A stretch of DNA of 64,000 bases, from positions 123,649 to 187,648 of IMG/VR virus record IMGVR_UViG_3300045988_178965; one strand, 5' to 3'. The stretch is from a virus. Shown here piece by piece: positions 21,299-44,473 of the stretch. Made by a program: the position numbers and the translations under genes. The notes beneath the pieces were generated by a model. That model did not search any database. It was not told the DNA's origin and saw nothing but the letters and a program-made list of their open reading frames with translations. The stretch's first letter is position 1. Every line of letters begins with the position of its first letter.

Positions 21299-22687
21299 TT
21301 AGAACGGACCGTCTTCGTCGTCTGCTTGAGGTTTGGTTTCAGTAGGTTGGGCTTGACCACGACGTGGACGTTTGGTTTCTTTGGTTTGAGCAGGTTTCTC
21401 GCCTTCTACTTTAGCAGTATCAGAAAAGATATCTACATCACCCAAGTCCAGACCGTCAACGTTCAGAGCGTCCAAATCAACGTCTGCGGCAACAGTAGTA
21501 GAGCCGGTTTCATTACGGTTGATGATATAACCGTCCATAGTAACGCGTGCTGTAACTACCCATGGTTGACCAGTTTCGTCGTCTTCACGTGGGGTGCGGC
21601 TTTCGAAACCGAGGACGTTATTCTCGGTGAACATGATTTCATCGGCATTGCTGCTTACGAAATCGAATGCTTCGGCGCGAGTTTGTCCACGGCCATTGTT
21701 GCCATTGCTGTACATAACTGCACGTACAGTAACGTCATTACCACGGCTGTCTTTGAAGTTAACGAACTTACGGCAATATTGAGTCGGATTGGTACCTTCT
21801 GTTACTTGAACACCAGCCAGATAGCCATCATGCAATTCGTCTTGCTCCAGGTTTGTCATTTCAGCTTGACCAGTAATAGTCAGACAGAAGTTAGGGGCAA
21901 TACGGCCATATGCACGTGGGGTAGTGCGGACATCAATTTGTTTGCCGTTGCTGGTGGTTTTGTAACTTGCTGCTGCAATCGGTACAATGCAAGGGCTCAG
22001 GCCATTTGCACCAACGTAGATTACAGTAGAAGTCGCAATTGCACCTGCGTCAACCAAGCGTTTGATTTCGGCTTTGTAACCTGCAACGATTTTGGCCATC
22101 ATTTCAGACAGCTGTTGTTCGTTATAGGTTGCGCGTTCACCGTTCTTTTCATAGGCGGTAACGATGCCTTTATCGTGGCTGACGAACGCAGAGCCGGACA
22201 GCAATGCTTCATAACCTTTGGTCAGGCTCAAAGCCTTCAACGCCAGGCCATTTGCCTTCTCATACCATTCGGAACCAAATGCTGGACCTACAGGAACAGG
22301 GAAGTTTGCCAATTTGCCATTTTGAATGCTCAAACCATTGAAGCCTGCATCCAGGAATTCCATAGCATTTGCATTGCTATTACGGACAGACGCAACGATT
22401 TGGTTAGTAGTCATACCTTCAACGTATTGCACACCGTCGTCGGCATTAGTAGCAACCCAGCAGGCACGGCCATTACTACGGCTCATTGGGGTATTTGCAA
22501 TCATGTGCACCAGTTTGTACACGGAAATGCGGTAACCCAGGGCTTCATTCTCGTCTTGGCGAGCGTCCAATACATAGAATGTACGGCGAGATGCTGCCAT
22601 TGGTGTTGCAACCTGACCGCTAACGCTGTGGAATTTGTTACGGCCAGTGTTCAGGGCGCCAGTGTCGATTTGATTCAGTTCGTTCAT
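21299..22687 (-). CDS. abundant DNA-metabolism protein, SSB-like (disordered linker + acidic ...DDEDGPF tip)
   Basis: The tail ...KRPRRGQAQPTETKPQADDEDGPF resembles SSB tips (E. coli ...DDDIPF; T7 gp2.5 acidic tail ending in F). Strong codon bias and visibly higher G+C leave the antisense frame open (21326..22711), as in the capsid genes. The ~400-aa globular part is unrecognised. Confidence 0.4.
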   Translation of the reverse strand: MNELNQIDTGALNTGRNKFHSVSGQVATPMAASRRTFYVLDARQDENEALGYRISVYKLVHMIANTPMSRSNGRACWVATNADDGVQYVEGMTTNQIVASVRNSNANAMEFLDAGFNGLSIQNGKLANFPVPVGPAFGSEWYEKANGLALKALSLTKGYEALLSGSAFVSHDKGIVTAYEKNGERATYNEQQLSEMMAKIVAGYKAEIKRLVDAGAIATSTVIYVGANGLSPCIVPIAAASYKTTSNGKQIDVRTTPRAYGRIAPNFCLTITGQAEMTNLEQDELHDGYLAGVQVTEGTNPTQYCRKFVNFKDSRGNDVTVRAVMYSNGNNGRGQTRAEAFDFVSSNADEIMFTENNVLGFESRTPREDDETGQPWVVTARVTMDGYIINRNETGSTTVAADVDLDALNVDGLDLGDVDIFSDTAKVEGEKPAQTKETKRPRRGQAQPTETKPQADDEDGPF

Positions 22688-22787
22688 GATGATTTTTCCT
22701 TTTTAGGTTGATTGAAATAAAAGATTCTTTCGGTCAAGATTCAGACCATAGAGCTGTTTTGGATTGAGGTCAGCTCTGTTACCTCAT

Positions 22788-33394: not shown

Positions 33395-33883
33395 ATGTTA
33401 TTAGAGAGATTAAAACAAAATTCTTCAATTAGAAGGCAATTTGGAGTTCATGGTCGTATAAGGCTGCGCTTTAAGGATGGGAAAGAGGCGTTCATATATA
33501 CTCTGGAATCTCCATGGGATTACAATCCTGATGAACCAAACGGGATTGTTGGTCTCAGTTGCATCAAAGATGGAAGTTATCAGATTGCAATTGAAGAGTC
33601 TCCGGTACATAAAATAAAATTGCCATTCCTTGTTAATCCTAAGAATGGCGTTCAATTAAGACAAAAGAGTGCCATAACAGATAGATGCGGGCATGCTTTT
33701 TGTCATATCGTTGATAAGGATATTTATAGTATATATGGCAGATACATACTAATTGGAGCAGACACGAGATATAATACTCAGGGTTTCTATGAACCAATAG
33801 AGGGTTATAAAGCGTATTCATTGCTGATGAAATATCTGGAAGAGACTAATGATATGGAGGTAAAAATAACGTGGGTGAACTAA
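33395..33883 (+). CDS. DUF5675-like protein
   Basis: YTLESPW...N....SCIKDGSY resembles the DUF5675 pattern that I recall next to phage lysins. From memory only. Confidence 0.35.
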   Translation: MLLERLKQNSSIRRQFGVHGRIRLRFKDGKEAFIYTLESPWDYNPDEPNGIVGLSCIKDGSYQIAIEESPVHKIKLPFLVNPKNGVQLRQKSAITDRCGHAFCHIVDKDIYSIYGRYILIGADTRYNTQGFYEPIEGYKAYSLLMKYLEETNDMEVKITWVN

Positions 33884-34368
33884 TTAGAGACTTTAGCCAT
33901 AATTGCGTAAGGCTTACTGAGCACTTTGAAGGCACAGTATTACATAAGTATGATGATGGTGTTGGTAAAATCACTATTGGTATAGGTCATATGATTAAAC
34001 CTGGTGAGACATTTCCTGAAAAGATAACCGCAGAATTTGCGAAAGAGTTGTTGATGAAGGACTTGCAGGTTGCAAAGAATGCAATATTAAAGAACGTGAA
34101 AGTTCCATTGAATCAATGCCAATTCGATGCACTTGGTGTATTTATCTTTAATGTTGGCGCAAATGCCTTTGCAAACTCCACACTATTGAAAAAATTAAAC
34201 TCTAAGGATTACGATGGTGCATCCAAAGAGTTTATAAGATGGAATAAAGGAAGAGTAAAAGGTGTTCTCTCAGAGATGCCTGGACTTACAAGACGCAGAG
34301 TTGCAGAACAGAAATTATTTAGCGCTGACCCGTCTGCAACTGATCCATTAAAATTTCTTGTTAAATAA
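33871..34368 (+). CDS. GH24 (T4-type) lysozyme / endolysin
   Basis: The HFEGTVLHKYDDGVGKITIGIGH segment places Glu, Asp (+9) and Thr (+15) exactly as in T4 lysozyme E11/D20/T26. GTG start after GGAGG. Confidence 0.85.
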   Translation: MGELIRDFSHNCVRLTEHFEGTVLHKYDDGVGKITIGIGHMIKPGETFPEKITAEFAKELLMKDLQVAKNAILKNVKVPLNQCQFDALGVFIFNVGANAFANSTLLKKLNSKDYDGASKEFIRWNKGRVKGVLSEMPGLTRRRVAEQKLFSADPSATDPLKFLVK

Positions 34369-34373
34369 AAATA

Positions 34374-34399
34374 AGCTCCAGGGTATTAATCCTGGAGCT
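34374..34399. terminator. bidirectional terminator between convergent genes
   Basis: agctccagg (34374-34382) / cctggagct (34391-34399), loop gtattaat. A/T-tracts on both sides. Confidence 0.7.
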
Positions 34400-34408
34400 A
34401 TTTATTTA

Positions 34409-35272
34409 TTAACCAATAGGGTTTGAACGAAATGATGTTGAGAAGGAATCCATAACCTCTCTATATACAAGAGGAAGATTTTTTACAACTCTAGACTCTG
34501 TTGAGTCGTCAATCTCTTTGATTACTAGATTTGACGCTGAGAACTTATTCTCTAGGTCTCTTATTGAGTCTTCGCCGAACTGTACAGCAAGGAACTTCAT
34601 TAAGTCTGTCGATTCTTTAAATGGGTTTTCTTCGCCATTACCTAGATGATCATCAATCTCTGCTATTAGAGATTTTGGCATACATAAATTGATTTTAATC
34701 TCTTTATGTGGAATCCATTTAATTCCTCTATTGTAATTAATCGCAGTGTTTACTAGCATTGCAACCAACTCTTTAGGAGGAACTACATAACCATCAAGGC
34801 TTTGTTCTACTACAGCTGTATAGTTGGTTCTGTATTCACCAACAGCAATTTTTCGAAGGTAAGGAATCGGTTTGTCTTTAAGTTCATCGTATGGTTGTTT
34901 GTATGTGTAACGATAAACTGGGTATTCGATAATCACGGCGCTTAAGAAGTATTTGTTTTCTAACTCTTCAATACCGCGCATTGAGGTTCTCTCTTCTTTG
35001 TTTACCATGTAGATCAATGGGTAAATATTCACTTCATTGCAAGAGAACAGAGGGTTGCGCATCTTTTGCTCATAGAAAATACGGCCGACCTCATTATTTA
35101 CGGTCTCATTTGAAGCCCATACATCGCGGACACCGGTAACATCATTATAGGCGATACGTGGAGTTAGGCACATTGCACATGTTGCGCCAAGGTTGTAATA
35201 AGTGATACGTTCTGGTTGTGATTGAAAAAACTGGTCTTGAAGAAATTCGCTTTTACTCATGTTTAAATACAT
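34409..35272 (-). CDS. hypothetical protein (isolated leftward gene inside the rightward block)
   Basis: 287-aa ORF. Alternative ATG at 35260. No motif recognised. Confidence 0.6.
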   Translation of the reverse strand: MYLNMSKSEFLQDQFFQSQPERITYYNLGATCAMCLTPRIAYNDVTGVRDVWASNETVNNEVGRIFYEQKMRNPLFSCNEVNIYPLIYMVNKEERTSMRGIEELENKYFLSAVIIEYPVYRYTYKQPYDELKDKPIPYLRKIAVGEYRTNYTAVVEQSLDGYVVPPKELVAMLVNTAINYNRGIKWIPHKEIKINLCMPKSLIAEIDDHLGNGEENPFKESTDLMKFLAVQFGEDSIRDLENKFSASNLVIKEIDDSTESRVVKNLPLVYREVMDSFSTSFRSNPIG

Positions 35273-35483
35273 TCCATATTATTGTTATTATTATTTTGTA
35301 TAGAAAAATGTTTCCGACTTCACCTTACTATAAGGACTGTATTATACTAAAAAATGAGGTAAAAGTCAAATTTTTTACAATCATTTATTTTATTAAAAAT
35401 CAATTACTTATATAGATAATAAATATTTTACACTTTCTTTACACTTTATATGTGTTATAAAATGTAAATTTTACAAATAATGC

Positions 35484-35512
35484 TTGACATTTATACCCAA
35501 AATCCGTATAAT
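35484..35512 (+). promoter_or_regulatory. perfect consensus sigma70 promoter
   Basis: TTGACA (35484-35489), 17-bp spacer, TATAAT (35507-35512). Confidence 0.75.
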
Positions 35513-35518
35513 ATAGCC

Positions 35519-36290
35519 TATAATATTTATGACGGAATGTGCTGAGTCGGGATAATCTACGGCATCCGGCCTTCAAGAGATATTATCTTACTGTGAACTA
35601 GTCCTAGAGAAATCTAAATAACCTCGAGAGACGGGGTCGGATGAAGCAGTAATGAAACTCCTAGATGTGGGCAAGCCTAACCGAAGGAGTCGATCGAAAA
35701 CTCGTTGTTGAAGTAGCGTAAGCTCCCTGACACTAATCATAGTAATACGAGAGGTGGCGAGTATAAATAAATTTCCTGTTATGCAGTGGATTGTAACCGA
35801 TATTAATCGGCCACATGGGAAGATGAAACATCTCTGGTCTTGTAGAGATAGCATATTGAGCTACAAGATGATACCGAAAGGTATGACTATAAATGGAAGT
35901 ATTAACGGTCCAAGGTATTCCTTGGAGGGTCAAAAAGGGTGAAGAAAAAGCCTAGGATATAGCTCTCTTACAATTAGGGTTATATCAGTAAGACATCTAC
36001 GTTGTACAACATGGCTAGATCGGGTTATTTTATTAAGCCACTTGCTTTGGTTAGGCCTAACTGTATCTAAATATATCATATGTCTAAAAAATAATAGATG
36101 GCCGCTGCGATGCGGCCCTATATTAAAAATAATAGATCAAAATTACAGATAATACATAGGCTGCGTGATGCAGCCCTAAGATCAATAGAGAAATGAACAT
36201 AAGCTTAGGATACTTACTTAAGCTTGTTATAGTCTACAATTATATTTGATAATATTTGGAGGTAGCTTGATGCTACCTCCTATTTTATTT
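35519..36290 (+). ncRNA. candidate large structured non-coding RNA (family unknown; 3' end uncertain: 36118, 36176 or 36290)
   Basis: No credible ORF for ~1.08 kb downstream of the consensus promoter. Many hairpins: atacc-GAAA-ggtat 35871-35884; ccaagg/ccttgg 35910-35925; atctct/agagat 35829-35849; actcct/aggagt 35658-35690. Possible long-range pairing gcctaacc 35675-35682 with ggttaggc 36049-36056. The region ends in three hairpins. Confidence 0.4.
36258..36290 (+). terminator. intrinsic terminator
   Basis: ggaggtagc (36258-36266) / gctacctcc (36272-36280), loop ttgat, followed by TATTTTATTT. Confidence 0.7.
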
Positions 36291-36595
36291 GCAAGAAAAA
36301 CTTACTTAAGCAAATAATACTTACTGCTTCCTGTATTGGAAGTATTCTATGAAAGATTTTAGAGATGTTCTGCTAAATCGTGGTTACACTGTCAGATTTA
36401 GTTCCTAGGTCATATATCCAGTTATTGCCTATGACCATGATTTAGCCTATACTAAATTATTTGATAGTAAAATAGAAATTCGGATTCTATCCAAGATAAT
36501 ACGAGTCTATTACCTGCATATATTTTCATCCTATTCGTTTTCAGTATTGCATGGTAAGAATAAGAATAATAATTTAACTCAGGATAATTAGTTTA

Positions 36596-37936
36596 ATGGC
36601 TATTCCAAATAAAGAAATACAAGAAATGTTTGATCTGTCTGCAGGTATTATCTCTGCTCATGAAATGAGAGAAAAAGAGAAGACAAAAGAGAAGACAGAA
36701 GTTGAAAAAACAGTATCTATGATACAAGAAACAGAATCAAAATCTATTCCGATTTTATTCTCATCTAGAGGTATAAAAGTAGTTGATAATAAAATCACAA
36801 GAGCTAGATATTTAGATGCATTATCGCTAGATGATAAACTATACGAGAGTATTGTACTTACAGAATCTGAGGCATTAGCTTTCAGTACCAGCTTAAGACG
36901 ATCAACCGATGGTGGTATCTCAACATACTCTCCAATGATCTGTAGAGGACAAAACTGCAAGGTTAAAGAAACATGCTTAACTGGAGACTCAATGGTCTCT
37001 ATGCATGACGGTAAACAAGTAAGAATTGATCGTATTAAAAGTGGCGATAAAATTATTTCGTTCAATACAAAAACAAAATGTATTGAACGGGACACTGTAT
37101 ATGCAACGACATATGTTGGCGAAGAGTTGGTGTATGAAATCACCACTACTGCCGGTCATTGCATTAAGGCGACATCGAATCATCAGTTTTTTGCAATAAA
37201 AGGACGAGGTTCAAAATTCAAGTTCTTATCAATTGATGATGGACTTACAGTAGGCAGCAAGCTGGTGTATGAAGATCTCTTCAGCGAAGAGGAGAATTCA
37301 TATGGGGATTGCTTAATTACCAAGATTGAATCCATAGAAGCTATTGGTGTTCTTCCAGTTTATGATATTCAAGTCTTTAAAAACTCTAATTTCTTTGCAG
37401 AAGGGTTGCTAGTCCATAACTGCCAGTTGTATAAGATGAACAAAGCTCCAGTCGGAGCCCCATGTATTTATGAGCAAGACTATTTGCGTAGTCAAACTGA
37501 AAGATACTTCGAAGAATTCAATGTTCAACCAGATAGCCCAACTGAAATGCAAATGGTCGCAGAACTTGCGGAAATTGACCTTTATGAAAGAAGGGTTACA
37601 CAAATCTTATCATTAACTCACCAAGACTTTAGTCAGGAAGATATGATGGGATTTGATGCTGCAGGGAATATGATTGCGCGTGACGACATCTCAAGATACC
37701 TAAACATCAAAGAGAAATTGAAAAACCGAAGAAGCAAACTTCTAGAGTCATTAATGGCGACAAGGAAAGAGCGGGCAAAGATTGCAGTACAGGCATCAGG
37801 ATCTGCTATTGGAAGTGGAAGTCAATCGCTCAAAGATAAACTTGATATGCTTACTGCTGCAACACGAGGGCAGTATGTCGATCCATCAGTGATAAATGGT
37901 TCAAAAAATGACACAAATCAAAAAGGTTCTAAATAA
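36596..37936 (+). CDS. intein-containing Zn-ribbon protein at the head of the packaging module (possible small terminase; function uncertain)
   Basis: The exteins carry CRGQNC-x5-[intein]-C-x14-C. The C-terminal part is coiled-coil-like. First gene of the packaging/head operon. Confidence 0.35.
   Translation: MAIPNKEIQEMFDLSAGIISAHEMREKEKTKEKTEVEKTVSMIQETESKSIPILFSSRGIKVVDNKITRARYLDALSLDDKLYESIVLTESEALAFSTSLRRSTDGGISTYSPMICRGQNCKVKETCLTGDSMVSMHDGKQVRIDRIKSGDKIISFNTKTKCIERDTVYATTYVGEELVYEITTTAGHCIKATSNHQFFAIKGRGSKFKFLSIDDGLTVGSKLVYEDLFSEEENSYGDCLITKIESIEAIGVLPVYDIQVFKNSNFFAEGLLVHNCQLYKMNKAPVGAPCIYEQDYLRSQTERYFEEFNVQPDSPTEMQMVAELAEIDLYERRVTQILSLTHQDFSQEDMMGFDAAGNMIARDDISRYLNIKEKLKNRRSKLLESLMATRKERAKIAVQASGSAIGSGSQSLKDKLDMLTAATRGQYVDPSVINGSKNDTNQKGSK
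36974..37420 (+). mobile_element. mini-intein (149 aa, no endonuclease domain)
   Basis: Starts at Cys (TGC 36974; CLTGDSMV). Block B is TSNH. Ends LLVHN (AAC 37418-37420), followed by +1 Cys (37421). Confidence 0.8.
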
Positions 37937-40108: not shown

Positions 40109-41222
40109 TAAAGCTCAACTTTGGGGCCAAATAGGCCTAGAATCAAATGGTGGCTTTTTTGGCAGAAAAAGTACAAAAGAAAAAGAAGCAATAAAAACAT
40201 CAAGACGACTATTCGAGAATAGTTTAGGACATGGTAATCATCCTATAAAATGGTCTTCAAATCTATACCGTAAGAATGCGGGCGCAGACTATGCGGACGT
40301 TAAAAGGATGATGGATGCAACAGATCCTCTTACCAAGGGTTCAATCGGAACTGCATTAAAGGCTGAGGCAATAACAAATTCTAGGAATAGGACTGCGGCA
40401 GAACGAATATTCGGCGCAGCACCAGGTTCAAGTAAATATAATTCCACTCAGCCAATAAGAGGCGGTGGTATAAATAACATATACGCATTTAATAGCTACG
40501 AATCGTTTGCAACCGCCGGTATGATGGACCACTTAGGTAGGGCTAGTAAATTCTTAGGTGGTTATGGTCTAAAAGATGACCTTATGAACTCCGTAGGTCT
40601 GATGACAAAACATCAAAAATCAATCATTGCATCATCAGCTACAAAGGCAACAGATAAGCTATTTGCGGGCCTTGCACCTACTATTGGTGGTATGTTTGCA
40701 CTTGCAGAAGCGTCTGACTACATTGTAGGGAATAAAGAATCAACCATTACAGATAACGCTGCCACATCTGTTGCAGGAATGGCTGCATCACTGGCATTAG
40801 GTACATATGGTTTCCGTGTAGGTAAAGAATTAACACACGCAGGAACATCGCTACTAAAAGGTGTACCAATCGTAGGTAAGATTGGTAGAGGAACAGCCGG
40901 TGAAGCTCTTGGTGCAGCAGGAAGAATTAGAGGTGCAGCAAAACTTGCAACTGGTACTGTTGGCGGATTAATTACAGGTGGCGGCTTAATGCTTGCCACA
41001 GATGCAGTAGTAGGCTTAGCAAAAAGTATGGCTGATAGGGACAATAGGATATTACAAATAAGAAACTCTCTATTCTCACCTACAACTGGTAATACGTCAG
41101 TTAATACGGCACAACTTGCAACCAGTAGGCAGAGGGCATTTGCAAAACTTTCAAAATCATCTCTGAACGATAAGGGCTATATTCTTGGAAATGAGGCTGC
41201 GATTTTAAAAGGTATTTTTTAA
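40098..41222 (+). CDS. glycine-rich protein with glycine-zipper-like C-terminal half
   Basis: GTAGEALGAAGRIRGAAKLATGTVGGLITGGGLMLATDAVVGLA. Confidence 0.5.
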   Translation: MSIDKAQLWGQIGLESNGGFFGRKSTKEKEAIKTSRRLFENSLGHGNHPIKWSSNLYRKNAGADYADVKRMMDATDPLTKGSIGTALKAEAITNSRNRTAAERIFGAAPGSSKYNSTQPIRGGGINNIYAFNSYESFATAGMMDHLGRASKFLGGYGLKDDLMNSVGLMTKHQKSIIASSATKATDKLFAGLAPTIGGMFALAEASDYIVGNKESTITDNAATSVAGMAASLALGTYGFRVGKELTHAGTSLLKGVPIVGKIGRGTAGEALGAAGRIRGAAKLATGTVGGLITGGGLMLATDAVVGLAKSMADRDNRILQIRNSLFSPTTGNTSVNTAQLATSRQRAFAKLSKSSLNDKGYILGNEAAILKGIF

Positions 41223-44200
41223 TGGAAAATTTAGATAAAAACACTGATCATATCAGAACTGATATAGGCGATAACGAGGATAAAAAACCTACGTCATCGC
41301 TTATACAGCTATATGAGATGCCATGGAGAGAGTATCTAAAGCATAAGAATTATGACAAAGATATTAACAATATGTGCAAGAATTGCCAAAGAGAGCAAAT
41401 TAAAAAGTACGGCGAAATTACAATTAAGTGTTCAGGGCCAAAAGATATCAGTGTTCTGGACCAAAATATTGTAGCCAACTTAGACAAAGAAGAGCTTGAC
41501 GAAATTAAGCAGGCGATGGATCCAGTGTACTGGGCAGAGAAAAATATCGATATAAATCAACCGGATCCAACAAAACGTTTATATGTTAATCGCTGGTATC
41601 AATCTATGCAAATTAAATGTTCTGCGTCTAAAAAGGCAATCCGATGTGGACGACGATCCGGCAAATCGTACGGCCTTGGTATTGATATCGCAAACAGACT
41701 TGTTCAAAACAGCAACTATCAAATTCTCGTAGTAACACCATTCCTGTCTCAAGCAAAAGAGCTCACAAACGTAGTTAAGAAAATTCTACGATCATTAGGT
41801 GCCACAATAGGTACATGGGATGATTTGGTGGAGAGATCTGTTACATCTCCGTATCAAGAGATACAGATGAAGAATGGATCAACATTCAAAGCATTTACAG
41901 CCGGTAACGATAACGCAAACGCTGTACGTGGACAAGGTGCCCACCTTATCATTATTGACGAGGCCGACTTCTTAACACAAGAAGCATTCGACTCTATTAC
42001 GGCCATTCTTATGGATAAGCCCAATACGGAAATTATCTGTACATCAACACCAATGGGCGAGGGGTTGCTATATAAATTTGCAAACTCAAAAGACTATAAA
42101 GAGTTCCATTTTCCATCATTCGTTATTCCGCACTACAATGACGATATGGATAGAGAGTTTAGAAACTCACTGTCTATGATGGCATATATCCAAGAGATTT
42201 GTCTAAGAGAAAATGAGGAAGTATTAACTAAATCCGGCAAAAAATACATACAAGATATTAAGGCTGGCGACATAGTATTTGATAAAAATATGAACCCTGT
42301 TAAAGTGTGGCAATCTGCCAGAAAAACAGGACATAAAGAAATACTTAAAACGACCGTAAATATTCCAGACATTATTTTATATACGACTCCTGACCATAAA
42401 TTCCCAAATAGAAATAATGAGAGGACCTGCATTTCAGAATTGTCTGAATTAGAGGTTTATAGGACTCCATATAAAAATAATTCAAAAGATGAAATCCTAG
42501 CCAGGTTAATAGGATATAATCTCGGTGATGGAACAATAACTTCTACGAGATTCGACTCATATTGGTATTCTTCCGAGAGGGAGGATATGTTTTTAGTTTC
42601 TGAAGATATACGTAGATTATGGCCAAATTTAAAAGCGAGTGTTTTGGAATATTTAGTTAGAAATAGTCACAAAGAAGACGCTCTAGTAAAAGTTGACGGA
42701 ATGAGATATTCTGTATCTGCGAGCAATGAGGCTACCAAATATTTAATGGATTTAGGCATGGTTCGCGGCAAAAAAGTCGAACAGGAATTTAATGTCCCTG
42801 AATTTGTATTAAATGGCAGTGAGTCGGTGAAAATTGAATTCATAGCTGCGCTATTTGGAGCGGAAGGGTCTACGCCAAGAGTTGATAAAAATGGCAAGAC
42901 TTCATGTACAGTCTCTCTATCTATGTCAAAAAGAATTGGTGTAAATGGATTGCCGTTTTTTAATAATTTAAAGGCGATTCTTTCCGACATAGGAATACAA
43001 AGCTCTGTGGCATATCGCAATGTAGGAATGAATACCATCTATACGCTATATGTTCTAAGTTCTCCAGAAAATTTGTTAAGATTTCATAGCAAAGTTGGCT
43101 ACAGGTATTGCGTTAGAAAAGAGCTCGAGTCTCTGTACATGTCTGCGTATATTTCGTACAAAAACAAAAAATCTGAAGACAAGACCTTGTTTATAGAGAA
43201 ATGTAGAAATATGAAGGCATCTGGAATGACAATTGACGATATCTTCAATCATTTCAATAAAGAGTATCCTAAGAGTTATATAGGCAAGGCTATACACAGA
43301 GATAGGAATAACCCAAGAGCTGCAGATGTGATGACATACAGTTCGTTTAAGGAAAGAAATGTAACTGATAGGGGCAGCATTTTTATAGAGATATTGTCAA
43401 AAGAATTGGTCGATAGTGCCAATACATACAACATTGGCGTATCGTCAGATGATAGCTCTTATATACTTTACAATGGTGTAAGAACATTCAACTGTGCAGA
43501 GTTTGGTCTATCAGATAATTCTGTTTTCGATACAGACCTTGTAAATAGAAGTACATCAATAGGAACGTCAGAATCTCTACATGATGTCATCGCAAACAGA
43601 AATAGATACATAGTTTCACTTGGATGCGACTGGAATGCCGACAAAGTAGGTACACGTATTTGTGTTATTGCATACGATAAGATTGAGCGTAAAATTATCA
43701 TAGCGAACCTATCAAATGTAAGACGAGAAGGGTGGACACAGGTAGCGGCAATAGACAAAATTGTTGAACTAAACCGTTTATATACACCAGACTACATTTA
43801 TGTCGATGAGGGGTTTGGCGAAGCTAACGTTCAACAGTTAAAACTGATTGCCGTAAACCTATTTGGTAAAGTACCTGCTGATCATCCAGATTTGAAACTA
43901 AGAGACGTCGTGCCGGTCAACTTTTCATCAACCCTAGAATTGCGTGACGTAATGACTGGCGAGATTCGTAAAAAATACTTCAAGAATTTTATAGTTGAAA
44001 CAACAAAACGCGCATTAGAAACAGGACTGCTTGCATTCAAGGATCCAATATCTACACCTATTGTAGAGCAGATGAAAAACTATATTGTAAAATCCAGAGC
44101 AGCTAATGGTAGAGAAGTCTATGAAGCTAAAAATAGCGAAATAGGTGACCACGATTTAGATGCATTTATGATTGCATTAGCGGGGCTACAACTAAATGAA

Positions 44201-44473
44201 AACTCAATTCTTGACACTAGGCGTTATTCAAATGTTACAATATTGCCACTTGAAAAACGCGGTATCGAAGCGTATAATGGTTCGGATAAAATAGAAAAAC
44301 GCTCATATGGAAACGAGGACAAATATCATCGTACAGTCCGTGTTGCACCAGGAATAAGTAGACGCTCGTCTATATCTGGCGGACCTATGGGCAACAGAGG
44401 AAGATTGTCTAGAGAGACAGCTTCTACGTTTATGAATAGGTATCGGACTACCATGAGGTCAAAATCTAGATAA
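41222..44473 (+). CDS. terL: terminase large subunit (intein-interrupted)
   Basis: Walker A RCGRRSGKS, Walker B HLIIIDEADF, coupling motif ICTSTP. After intein removal the junction reads MAYIQEI-CAEFG. The nuclease half has acidic motifs (LGCDWN, YVDEGFGE, IGDHDLDAF). Confidence 0.85.
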   Translation: MENLDKNTDHIRTDIGDNEDKKPTSSLIQLYEMPWREYLKHKNYDKDINNMCKNCQREQIKKYGEITIKCSGPKDISVLDQNIVANLDKEELDEIKQAMDPVYWAEKNIDINQPDPTKRLYVNRWYQSMQIKCSASKKAIRCGRRSGKSYGLGIDIANRLVQNSNYQILVVTPFLSQAKELTNVVKKILRSLGATIGTWDDLVERSVTSPYQEIQMKNGSTFKAFTAGNDNANAVRGQGAHLIIIDEADFLTQEAFDSITAILMDKPNTEIICTSTPMGEGLLYKFANSKDYKEFHFPSFVIPHYNDDMDREFRNSLSMMAYIQEICLRENEEVLTKSGKKYIQDIKAGDIVFDKNMNPVKVWQSARKTGHKEILKTTVNIPDIILYTTPDHKFPNRNNERTCISELSELEVYRTPYKNNSKDEILARLIGYNLGDGTITSTRFDSYWYSSEREDMFLVSEDIRRLWPNLKASVLEYLVRNSHKEDALVKVDGMRYSVSASNEATKYLMDLGMVRGKKVEQEFNVPEFVLNGSESVKIEFIAALFGAEGSTPRVDKNGKTSCTVSLSMSKRIGVNGLPFFNNLKAILSDIGIQSSVAYRNVGMNTIYTLYVLSSPENLLRFHSKVGYRYCVRKELESLYMSAYISYKNKKSEDKTLFIEKCRNMKASGMTIDDIFNHFNKEYPKSYIGKAIHRDRNNPRAADVMTYSSFKERNVTDRGSIFIEILSKELVDSANTYNIGVSSDDSSYILYNGVRTFNCAEFGLSDNSVFDTDLVNRSTSIGTSESLHDVIANRNRYIVSLGCDWNADKVGTRICVIAYDKIERKIIIANLSNVRREGWTQVAAIDKIVELNRLYTPDYIYVDEGFGEANVQQLKLIAVNLFGKVPADHPDLKLRDVVPVNFSSTLELRDVMTGEIRKKYFKNFIVETTKRALETGLLAFKDPISTPIVEQMKNYIVKSRAANGREVYEAKNSEIGDHDLDAFMIALAGLQLNENSILDTRRYSNVTILPLEKRGIEAYNGSDKIEKRSYGNEDKYHRTVRVAPGISRRSSISGGPMGNRGRLSRETASTFMNRYRTTMRSKSR
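42200..43492 (+). mobile_element. intein with LAGLIDADG homing endonuclease (431 aa)
   Basis: Cys1 at TGT 42200 (CLRENEEVLTKSG). Block B is TPDH. LAGLIDADG motifs LIGYNLGDGTI and FIAALFGAEGS. Ends ...ILYNGVRTFN (AAC 43490-43492) with +1 Cys. The penultimate residue is Phe rather than His. Confidence 0.8.

Follow-up and report, generated by a model that had tools for sequence, protein, structure and literature searches.

A phage-borne HOLDH RNA with a conserved 3′ extension, covarying long-range complementarity and a putative promoter of its own

We analysed a 64,000-nt stretch of viral DNA, positions 123,649 to 187,648 of the IMG/VR record IMGVR_UViG_3300045988_178965 (hereafter the window), and found that its plus strand carries, from position 35520, a phage-borne copy of the large structured non-coding RNA (ncRNA) HOLDH. 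Overall, the data are best explained by a HOLDH ncRNA that very probably has its own promoter, comprises a conserved unit of 552 nt and sits in an accessory cassette together with a gene for a 287-aa protein. HOLDH is already catalogued, so the finding of a large ncRNA is not novel as stated; the present work adds a revised 3′ boundary, a closing helix supported by covariation, a promoter and a terminator, the phage clade to which the RNA belongs, and a cassette with a candidate protein partner.

A cmscan search at Rfam gathering thresholds returned a single match in the whole window, HOLDH RNA (RF02997), at 35520–35884 on the plus strand. It scored 374.6 bits against a gathering score of 319.4 (E = 3.6e-101), spanned model positions 1–391 of 391 without truncation, and its alignment to RF02997 had zero pairs flagged as non-canonical. 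A preliminary description of this DNA had proposed a promoter-driven, large structured ncRNA without placing it in a family; the full-length match, the covariation of helices in the core, in the extension and in the long-range pairing, and the absence of conserved coding bear that proposal out and identify the RNA as HOLDH. A permissive Rfam rescan of 35300–36700 gave only noise besides HOLDH (best other match E = 0.13), and the ROOL and GOLLD covariance models did not match this interval even at E ≤ 1. No Rfam match was obtained at the locus for phi29-type packaging RNA (pRNA), group I or II introns, ribonuclease P, transfer-messenger RNA (which was not found in the 64-kb window either) or the cis-regulatory families. 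The RNA and its putative promoter comprise the following elements:

35484–35512, plus strand: sigma70-type promoter of the RNA, with −35 TTGACA at 35484–35489, a 17-nt spacer and −10 TATAAT at 35507–35512 (12 of 12 consensus positions)
35520–35884, plus strand: HOLDH RNA core according to the Rfam RF02997 covariance model, with 78 consensus pairs, 36 of which show compensatory changes (18 sequences)
35520–35586, plus strand: 5′ domain, with helix P1 (35520–35527:35579–35586), a putative kink turn (k-turn) and a hairpin with the invariant loop GGAUAAUCUA at 35550–35559
35675–35682, plus strand: 5′ strand of the long-range helix, GCCUAACC, overlapping the 3′ half of a small Rfam hairpin, UGGG/CCUA
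35885–36071, plus strand: conserved 3′ extension outside the Rfam model, recognised by identity to relatives and by its terminal element
35910–35915:35920–35925, plus strand: extension hairpin in which, across lineages, both bases differ at 5 of 6 pairs
35956–35966:35976–35986, plus strand: extension hairpin of 11 bp, 97.5% of cells paired, three pairs with compensatory changes
36049–36069, plus strand: invariant 3′ terminal element, GGUUAGGCCUAACUGUAUCUA, of which 36049–36056 is the 3′ strand of the long-range helix

Relatives were retrieved with three conserved motifs from the Rfam consensus, which yielded 27 true loci in IMG/VR and 22 in metagenome assemblies. Nearly all of the approximately 50 HOLDH loci lie on uncultured phage contigs of ~170–189 kb, all of them metagenomic. 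The scores of 24 IMG/VR loci ranged from 322.9 to 408.6 bits and 25 further loci in all were above the gathering score; one true member, L005, fell just under it at 312.3 bits. The 44 full-length units (32 unique) form five lineages, W, B, C, D and E. With the neighbouring proteins as anchors, two more lineages came to light, G (L098/L099, complete, 322.1 bits, barely above the gathering score) and a truncated lineage F (L063), which stops before the 3′ end and was left out of the long-range helix comparison. HOLDH was absent from 185,579 bacterial and archaeal species genomes (one genome each, searched with two independent motifs); four matches to the second motif in cellular genomes were coding sequence on the other strand and were rejected. 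A blastn search of the locus against 50,697 deposited phage genomes gave no match, and the nearest cultured phage, judged by its terminase, is 41.6% identical. On present sampling, HOLDH appears confined to one narrow clade of uncultured phages with contigs of ~170–189 kb. The family has been described from human-associated metagenomic sequence, beside genes annotated as DNA helicase, and is not known from elsewhere.

The HOLDH 5′ hairpin motif GTCGGGnTAAnCTACGG is not diagnostic of the family when taken alone: it also occurs by coincidence on the reverse strand of conserved coding sequence (peptide ...DAVDYPD...), as at L057–L060, from Anaerolineae and Blastocatellia genomes, and at L016, L019 and L023. 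The last three loci and L029 were discarded as chance or coding matches.

HOLDH is one of 224 motifs of Weinberg et al. 2017, according to PMC8191799, and its Rfam seed holds 10 sequences, with 6 of 95 pairs covarying (PMC11702757). Its k-turn has been described; it folds in vitro, weakly in Mg2+, and binds L7Ae in vitro (PMC8191799). Beyond cataloguing, the k-turn was the only subject of published work that we found in the literature searched, and no function of the RNA was reported there. In the window the putative k-turn lies at the P1/P2 junction, with a bulge at 35528–35530 and the tandem pairs G35531·A35578 and A35532·G35577. The flanking positions differ from the published k-turn: −1b:−1n is U·G instead of U:A, 3b:3n is C·A instead of A:G, and 4b:4n is G·A instead of G:U. 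A tblastn search of the window with L7Ae, YbxF and YlxQ, a weak test, revealed no L7Ae-like gene (best match E = 0.2). The invariant loop and linker sequences GGAUAAnCUA, UCGAAAACU, UGAAGnAGCGUAA and AGUAUAAAUAAAU are all present in the window and constant across the five aligned lineages. The window copy is the shortest HOLDH variant, measuring 365 nt in the modelled part, where a 6-nt stretch replaces the 26-nt hairpin of the model.

Several hairpins had been pointed out from the letters of the window alone. The one at 35871–35884 (ATACC-GAAA-GGTAT) proved to be the last hairpin of the Rfam model and covaries; ACTCCT/AGGAGT at 35658–35690 corresponds to the Rfam helix 35658–35662:35685–35689 and is among the four of these pairings that count as real and covarying, as is CCAAGG/CCTTGG at 35910–35925, the first of the extension hairpins listed above. 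Two others did not stand: the bases of AGC-GTAA-GCT are unpaired or otherwise paired in the Rfam consensus, and ATCTCT/AGAGAT at 35829–35849 clashes with the covarying Rfam helix 35837–35845:35861–35869. Within the core, we also observed that a unit at 35715–35760, CUCCCUGA...AAAGUAAU, is single in the window's lineage and tandemly doubled in all other lineages; its unpaired CCC sits in an anti-Shine-Dalgarno-like sequence.

The conserved unit in the window measures 552 nt (35520–36071), compared with the 365 nt covered by Rfam. Homology to the window passes 35884 and runs to ~36026, and then comes a near-invariant island at 36043–36069; across copies, the extension reaches ~190–270 nt past the 3′ end of the model. 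A terminal element, AGGCC..A.UGUA.CU, closes all 44 full-length units, 534–698 nt from their 5′ end. Compared with the other lineages, in order of increasing distance, the window showed the following identities:

Rfam core: 92, 85, 78, 64 and 63%
3′ extension: 91, 76, 64, 48 and 56% (shuffled baseline ~50)
Trailer, the next 220 nt: 70, 52, 53, 54 and 51% (shuffled baseline ~51)

These segment identities therefore place the end of the conserved unit at ~36071 and indicate that the extension evolves faster than the core. Helices of the extension were tested on an alignment of lineages W, B and C, which can be aligned reliably; MAFFT and RNAalifold applied to all lineages misalign D and E in the extension, and single-lineage folds carry too little variation. 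The three helices tested (35871–35875:35880–35884 and the two extension hairpins) were paired in 96.3% of cells compared with 86.4 ± 1.3 in column shuffles, none of 500 of which reached the observed value. Compensatory changes were seen at 11 of the 22 pairs, and sliding the partner strand by 1–3 columns lowered pairing to 34–48%. Lineages B and C have an extra extension hairpin that W lacks. For the invariant tail at 36057–36069 (CCUAACUGUAUCU), a systematic search found no consistent partner. Judged from conservation across these copies, the true HOLDH RNA is about 550–700 nt and longer than annotated.

The 3′ terminal element is also one side of a long-range pairing. An 8-bp complement between 35675–35682 and 36049–36056 had been noted in the preliminary description; its 7-bp core (35675–35681:36050–36056) is paired in each of the six lineages that could be read at both ends (W, B, C, D, E and G; 11 distinct sequences), and it covaries:

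Lineages W, B and C: 5′ strand GCCUAAC, 3′ strand GUUAGGC
Lineage D: 5′ strand GCCUGGC, 3′ strand GCCAGGC
Lineages E and G: 5′ strand GCCUAGC, 3′ strand GCUAGGC

All 77 of 77 cells in the 7-bp core are paired, a level reached in 0 of 500 shuffles and compared with 0–50% in slid controls, and its covariation score is 0.197 against 0.099 ± 0.024. Compensatory replacement of A-U by G-C is seen at two helix positions, 5 in lineage D and 6 in lineages D, E and G; pairs 8–10 of a possible longer helix are not conserved. In the truncated lineage F the 5′ strand reads GCCUUAC. The two strands lie ~370 nt apart, and the minimum-free-energy (MFE) fold computed for the window RNA arrives at this closure independently. 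A second long-range helix of the MFE fold, 35662–35670:36061–36069, is neither kept nor compensated in lineages B, C, D and E and was set aside. We also considered, and rejected, a reading of GUUAGGCCUAAC as a self-palindrome. The 3′ element contains a 12-nt palindrome in lineages W and B that degenerates in C, D and E, with only its GGCC centre invariant, and the 5′–3′ pairing stays perfect throughout; the loss of the palindrome in these three lineages thus favours 5′–3′ pairing over self-pairing of the 3′ element.

Between the minus-strand gene at 34409–35272 and the plus-strand gene at 36596–37936 lie 1.3 kb without a credible gene, and the gene callers left this gap empty too. The start of the next credible plus-strand gene at 36596, as described before, was confirmed, and the gene is syntenic in all relatives. 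The small open reading frames (ORFs) of 62–88 aa that had been listed as the only ones in between, on both strands, are indeed present. Their counterparts range from 50 to 96 aa with start codons that differ between lineages, and their frames are broken by insertions or deletions (indels) of +59 and +7 nt. Counted by codon position (1/2/3), the variable columns numbered 37/38/44, 37/37/42 and 41/39/38, so that there is no codon periodicity, and the tested gap ORFs have no third-position bias. With no conserved ORF and no codon periodicity, these alignments exclude coding at the locus. The region had further been described as less AT-rich than its flanks, which agrees with a GC content of 0.38–0.44 at 35500–35900 against 0.20–0.29 just upstream and 0.29–0.31 downstream.

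The promoter-like sequence upstream of P1 is, as the preliminary description had stated, the only perfect sigma70 consensus in the window (1 found in 64 kb against 0.17 expected). Because at least one such consensus also arose in 15 of 100 shuffles, a single perfect consensus is not significant alone; it is its conservation that marks the predicted promoter as real. The −10 TATAAT is invariant in 21 non-redundant relatives and keeps a fixed distance to the RNA 5′ end amid drifting flanks, with the −35 element varying among lineages (TTGAC(A/T), TTGCAT, TTGATT, TTAACA) and the −10 constant in all; lineage G has TTGATT-17-TATAAT at the same position. The promoter stops 7 nt short of helix P1, and transcription would start at ~35519–35520.

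Downstream of the conserved unit, the locus continues with the following features:

36072–36257, plus strand: variable trailer with GC-rich hairpins at 36100–36117 and 36159–36175 and a further hairpin at 36203–36223
36258–36290, plus strand: intrinsic-terminator-like hairpin, GGAGGUAGC-UUGAU-GCUACCUCC with a U-run behind it, retained by lineages W, B and C
36372–36453, plus strand: near-invariant block ahead of the gene for the Hint protein, containing a 13-nt inverted repeat at 36372–36384/36434–36446

The identity of the trailer is already at the shuffled baseline in lineage B, and its hairpins recur in relatives with stems retained and loops changing. The end coordinate of 36290 proposed earlier for the structured region coincides with the terminator-like hairpin and its T-run. 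The inverted repeat, GCTAAATCGTGGT/ACCATGATTTAGC, overlaps a promoter-like TTGCCT-17-TATACT at 36425–36453 and is near-invariant in W, B and C; the block resembles a regulated promoter or an operator that would serve the packaging operon. A layout in which a terminator precedes a conserved promoter-like block favours a discrete RNA over a leader, as far as motifs can tell. The two GC-rich trailer hairpins occur nowhere else in the 64-kb window. Within 36093–36175, GGCCGC-N6-GCGGCC stands right after AATAGAT, and GGCTGC-N5-GCAGCC lies 22 nt beyond a second AATAGAT copy. The copy number of these hairpins differs among lineages, and read on the minus strand they would be terminators.

The window as a whole is phage DNA, with genes for a lysozyme (33871–34368), a large terminase (41222–44473), a TnsA-like/head-closure protein and an exonuclease; no tRNA genes were found in its 64 kb, and more than 27 kb of same-strand genes follow the RNA. 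To the left of the RNA lie:

34374–34399, both strands: bidirectional terminator-like hairpin that separates the lysozyme and 287-aa genes, the left edge of the cassette
34409–35272, minus strand: 287-aa orphan gene, divergent from the RNA and co-inherited in all lineages
35341–35369, minus strand: near-consensus promoter TTGACT-17-TATAAT (11 of 12 positions), pointing to the 287-aa gene, back to back with that of the RNA

All lineages have the RNA at a single constant site, where the lysis module gives way to the packaging module, 211–300 nt from the divergent 287-aa gene and 341–1313 nt from the 446-aa Hint-domain gene, and this synteny is kept although the neighbouring proteins have drifted to 36–50% identity. 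Lineage C has a perfect consensus promoter at the position of the 287-aa gene promoter. In more distant relatives (L095–L097), in which the homologues of the Hint protein are 35–40% identical, the lysozyme gene abuts or overlaps the Hint-protein gene, and neither HOLDH nor the 287-aa gene is present at that site. Since both are absent there, we infer that 34369–36595 is a moron-like accessory cassette (terminator, 287-aa gene, divergent promoters, RNA, terminator) that would be dispensable for packaging, and not part of the packaging machinery. The link to packaging that the preliminary description had drawn from the position of the RNA did not hold up: Rfam gave no pRNA match, and at this site the RNA is missing from distant relatives that share the packaging genes. 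On three contigs of 183–186 kb (L054–L056) the locus lies at 28, 73 and 140 kb and so has no fixed relation to a genome end; this circular permutation of the assemblies fits a genome that is circular or has terminal redundancy.

Two further contigs differ at the cassette site. L094 (1–1815) has unrelated minus-strand genes of 405 and 60 aa there, and accessory genes may insert preferentially at the lysis/packaging junction. In the D-like L093 (1560–2700), 208 unrelated nt replace HOLDH, and a frameshift splits the 287-aa gene into ORFs of 135 and 119 aa, which may reflect decay after loss of the RNA or an assembly error.

The 287-aa protein falls into 21 clusters, all in this phage clade and all named "hypothetical protein" of uncultured phages. 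Its invariant acidic residues are D50, E94, E102–E105, E156, D160, E168, E205 and D256. Sequence and profile searches of Pfam, PHROGs, NCBIfam, PADLOC and the PDB gave no match, and an exact-sequence look-up of the window's own protein returned no record. Its AlphaFold2 model (pLDDT 76, pTM 0.79) had no significant fold neighbour in the PDB, the top matches being NurA, UvrC-C and Metnase at E ≥ 0.086; among the BFVD viral models the best match was "RNaseH", at E = 3.5e-4 with a TM-score of only 0.28–0.30. RNase H-like folds recur among the weak matches of both structure searches, a weak hint, and a lead only, that the predicted structure may be RNase H-like.

The 446-aa protein on the other side of the RNA (36596–37936) contains a mini-intein at residues 127–275 with C...HN/C junctions, and its homologues at 35–40% identity retain the Hint domain. 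It matches "replicative DNA helicase" models solely through the intein; helicase annotations of this gene are therefore artefacts, and the spliced extein matched no family. The large terminase (1083 aa) likewise carries a LAGLIDADG-type intein/homing-endonuclease domain, with a Pfam match at residues 536–626, so that two intein-bearing genes lie within 8 kb. Elsewhere in the window, 21299–22711 holds an antisense pair of near full-length ORFs, of 462 aa on the minus strand and 461 aa on the plus strand, neither with a Pfam match.

On these data, we propose that host RNA polymerase would make HOLDH early or constitutively from the sigma70 promoter, as a discrete transcript of about 0.55–0.77 kb that would start at the first helix and act in trans as a folded particle, not as a leader of the downstream operon. 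HOLDH and the 287-aa gene would together form a dispensable, moron-like accessory cassette; from this dispensability we infer a role in the interaction between phage and host and not in DNA packaging. It is conceivable, and we suggest it only tentatively, that HOLDH works with the co-inherited 287-aa protein as a ribonucleoprotein (RNP), or regulates that protein. A bolder version, argued from analogy and distinctly unlikely, makes HOLDH the RNA subunit of a two-part system with the 287-aa protein, perhaps an RNase H-fold nuclease, or else an RNA-only multimer assembled through the 5′–3′ pairing. Under its two-part form, the invariant scaffold closed by the long-range helix would hold or regulate the 287-aa protein, by analogy with the HEARO RNAs and IscB.

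Among the rival explanations, an RNA-only homo-oligomer like ROOL, GOLLD and OLE, in which the 5′–3′ pairing would be an intermolecular bridge and not a closing helix, is unlikely. It would suit a large, ornate, phage-borne RNA with no recognised protein partner, and its 3′ element, with an invariant GGCC centre and a 12-nt palindrome in W and B, recalls GOLLD, in which a covarying kissing loop is intermolecular and GGCC-type palindromes mediate symmetric contacts (PMC12286853). The palindrome beyond GGCC is, however, lost in C, D and E, with 5′–3′ complementarity perfect in all lineages; the locus has no nearby tRNA genes, unlike ROOL and GOLLD, and it does have a co-inherited protein gene. 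Even a DNA-level signal (a pac site or an origin) or one or more small proteins could be imagined behind the locus, given the 62–88-aa ORFs on both strands and hairpins that could also form in DNA. We consider this extremely improbable: neither the lengths of the ORFs nor their start codons are kept, the +59 and +7 nt indels interrupt the frames, there is no third-position bias, G·U pairs and compensatory changes are strand-specific, the covariance-model score of 374.6 bits is on the plus strand, and the promoter is conserved at a fixed distance.

Two roles tied to the downstream genes are disfavoured as well. Processive antiterminator RNAs, such as the HK022 put RNA and EAR, act in cis on their own polymerase, so that downstream terminators are read through. 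HOLDH could similarly be the 5′ part of a late packaging-operon transcript, with processive antitermination through the downstream hairpins and terminator, and the succession of a strong promoter, a structured RNA, terminator-like hairpins and more than 27 kb of same-strand genes, at a position conserved upstream of the same gene, fits such a leader. We regard it as improbable, since a conserved intrinsic terminator and then a near-invariant promoter-like block with an inverted repeat stand before the operon, the distance from RNA to gene varies over 341–1313 nt, HOLDH exceeds known antiterminator RNAs 5–10-fold in size, in relatives lacking the RNA the same operon runs straight on from the lysozyme gene, and Rfam gave no match to a cis-regulatory family. 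A role for HOLDH as part of the DNA-packaging motor, in the manner of phi29 pRNA, is highly improbable. Apart from possible intermolecular pairing, all that points there is the location of the RNA ahead of the genes for the Hint protein, the TnsA-like protein, the exonuclease and the large terminase; it has no Rfam pRNA similarity, the RNA is missing at this site from relatives with homologous packaging genes and likewise from L093, and the locus at 28, 73 and 140 kb on permuted contigs is not at a genome end.

Several points weigh against a discrete, self-closed HOLDH RNA in a cassette with the 287-aa gene. Only two of the seven long-range pairs vary, probably in two independent events, and the helix is mutually exclusive with the small Rfam hairpin UGGG/CCUA, which is also 100% compatible with the alignment, with one-sided change only. 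The covariation fits pairing within one molecule or between two and cannot tell them apart; the covariation-supported "kissing loop" of GOLLD proved intermolecular (PMC12286853). Folding energy is not discriminating, with an unremarkable z-score of −1.75 on the plus strand and −2.48 on the minus strand. Lineages C, D and E have no canonical terminator within 350 nt of the core (in C, the conserved terminator lies further downstream than that), and transcription may read through into the downstream operon. The 5′ and 3′ ends of the RNA are placed from promoter and terminator motifs only, and its link to the 287-aa protein is pure co-occurrence. For the cassette itself, absence was established at this locus only, in 8-kb stretches, gain versus loss cannot be polarised, and the L093 frameshift comes from a single contig and may be an assembly error.

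HOLDH is among the very few orphan ncRNAs of bacteria or phages that exceed 350 nt, and this locus with its ~50 relatives supplies a transcription unit, probable true bounds of the RNA, a genomic home and a candidate protein partner. If the RNP or the RNA-only multimer were true, it would give function or architecture to one of the last large Weinberg–Breaker orphan RNAs. The long-range helix is a feature that the current Rfam model cannot represent, and a construct truncated at the Rfam 3′ end would lose the closing helix. With ROOL, GOLLD and OLE now solved by cryo-EM, HOLDH in its correct bounds clearly suggests itself as the one to follow.

Compared with known systems, HOLDH resembles phi29 pRNA in being a phage-encoded, apparently promoter-driven structured RNA near a packaging context; it differs in lacking homology, in being three to four times larger, and in being absent at this site from relatives with the same packaging genes. 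OLE is a large RNA that works as an RNP with Oap proteins, and the likeness here is a large structured RNA genetically linked to a dedicated protein gene, whereas OLE is bacterial and co-transcribed with its partners and the HOLDH neighbour is a divergent orphan, linked by co-occurrence alone. HEARO RNAs turned out to be omega-RNAs of IscB, and TnpB omega-RNAs likewise pair a structured RNA with an RNase H-fold (RuvC) nuclease. HOLDH shares with these the status of an orphan structured RNA of the Weinberg–Breaker catalogues beside a protein with a weak RNase H-like fold signal, and an invariant scaffold end followed by variable sequence. The resemblance goes no further: the fold signal of the 287-aa protein has a TM-score of about 0.3 with no sequence-level support, its gene is divergent and not co-linear, and no transposon ends or guide-like target were identified at HOLDH.

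ROOL and GOLLD are RNA-only nanocages of phages and prophages (PMC12286853), often found near tRNA genes (PMC12286853, PMC5737381). Like them, HOLDH is a phage-borne, multi-domain orphan RNA several hundred nucleotides long, and as in GOLLD a variable region lies beside a conserved one. It differs from them in the absence of an Rfam match to either family and of adjacent tRNA genes, in its co-inherited protein gene, and in its apparent confinement to a narrow phage clade, with none in the 185,579 cellular genomes. The closest comparison remains HOLDH as modelled in Rfam: the window copy has the same helices and invariant loops, a putative k-turn core and a full-length match above the gathering score, and its unit is longer at the 3′ end, with extra helices and the long-range helix outside the model.

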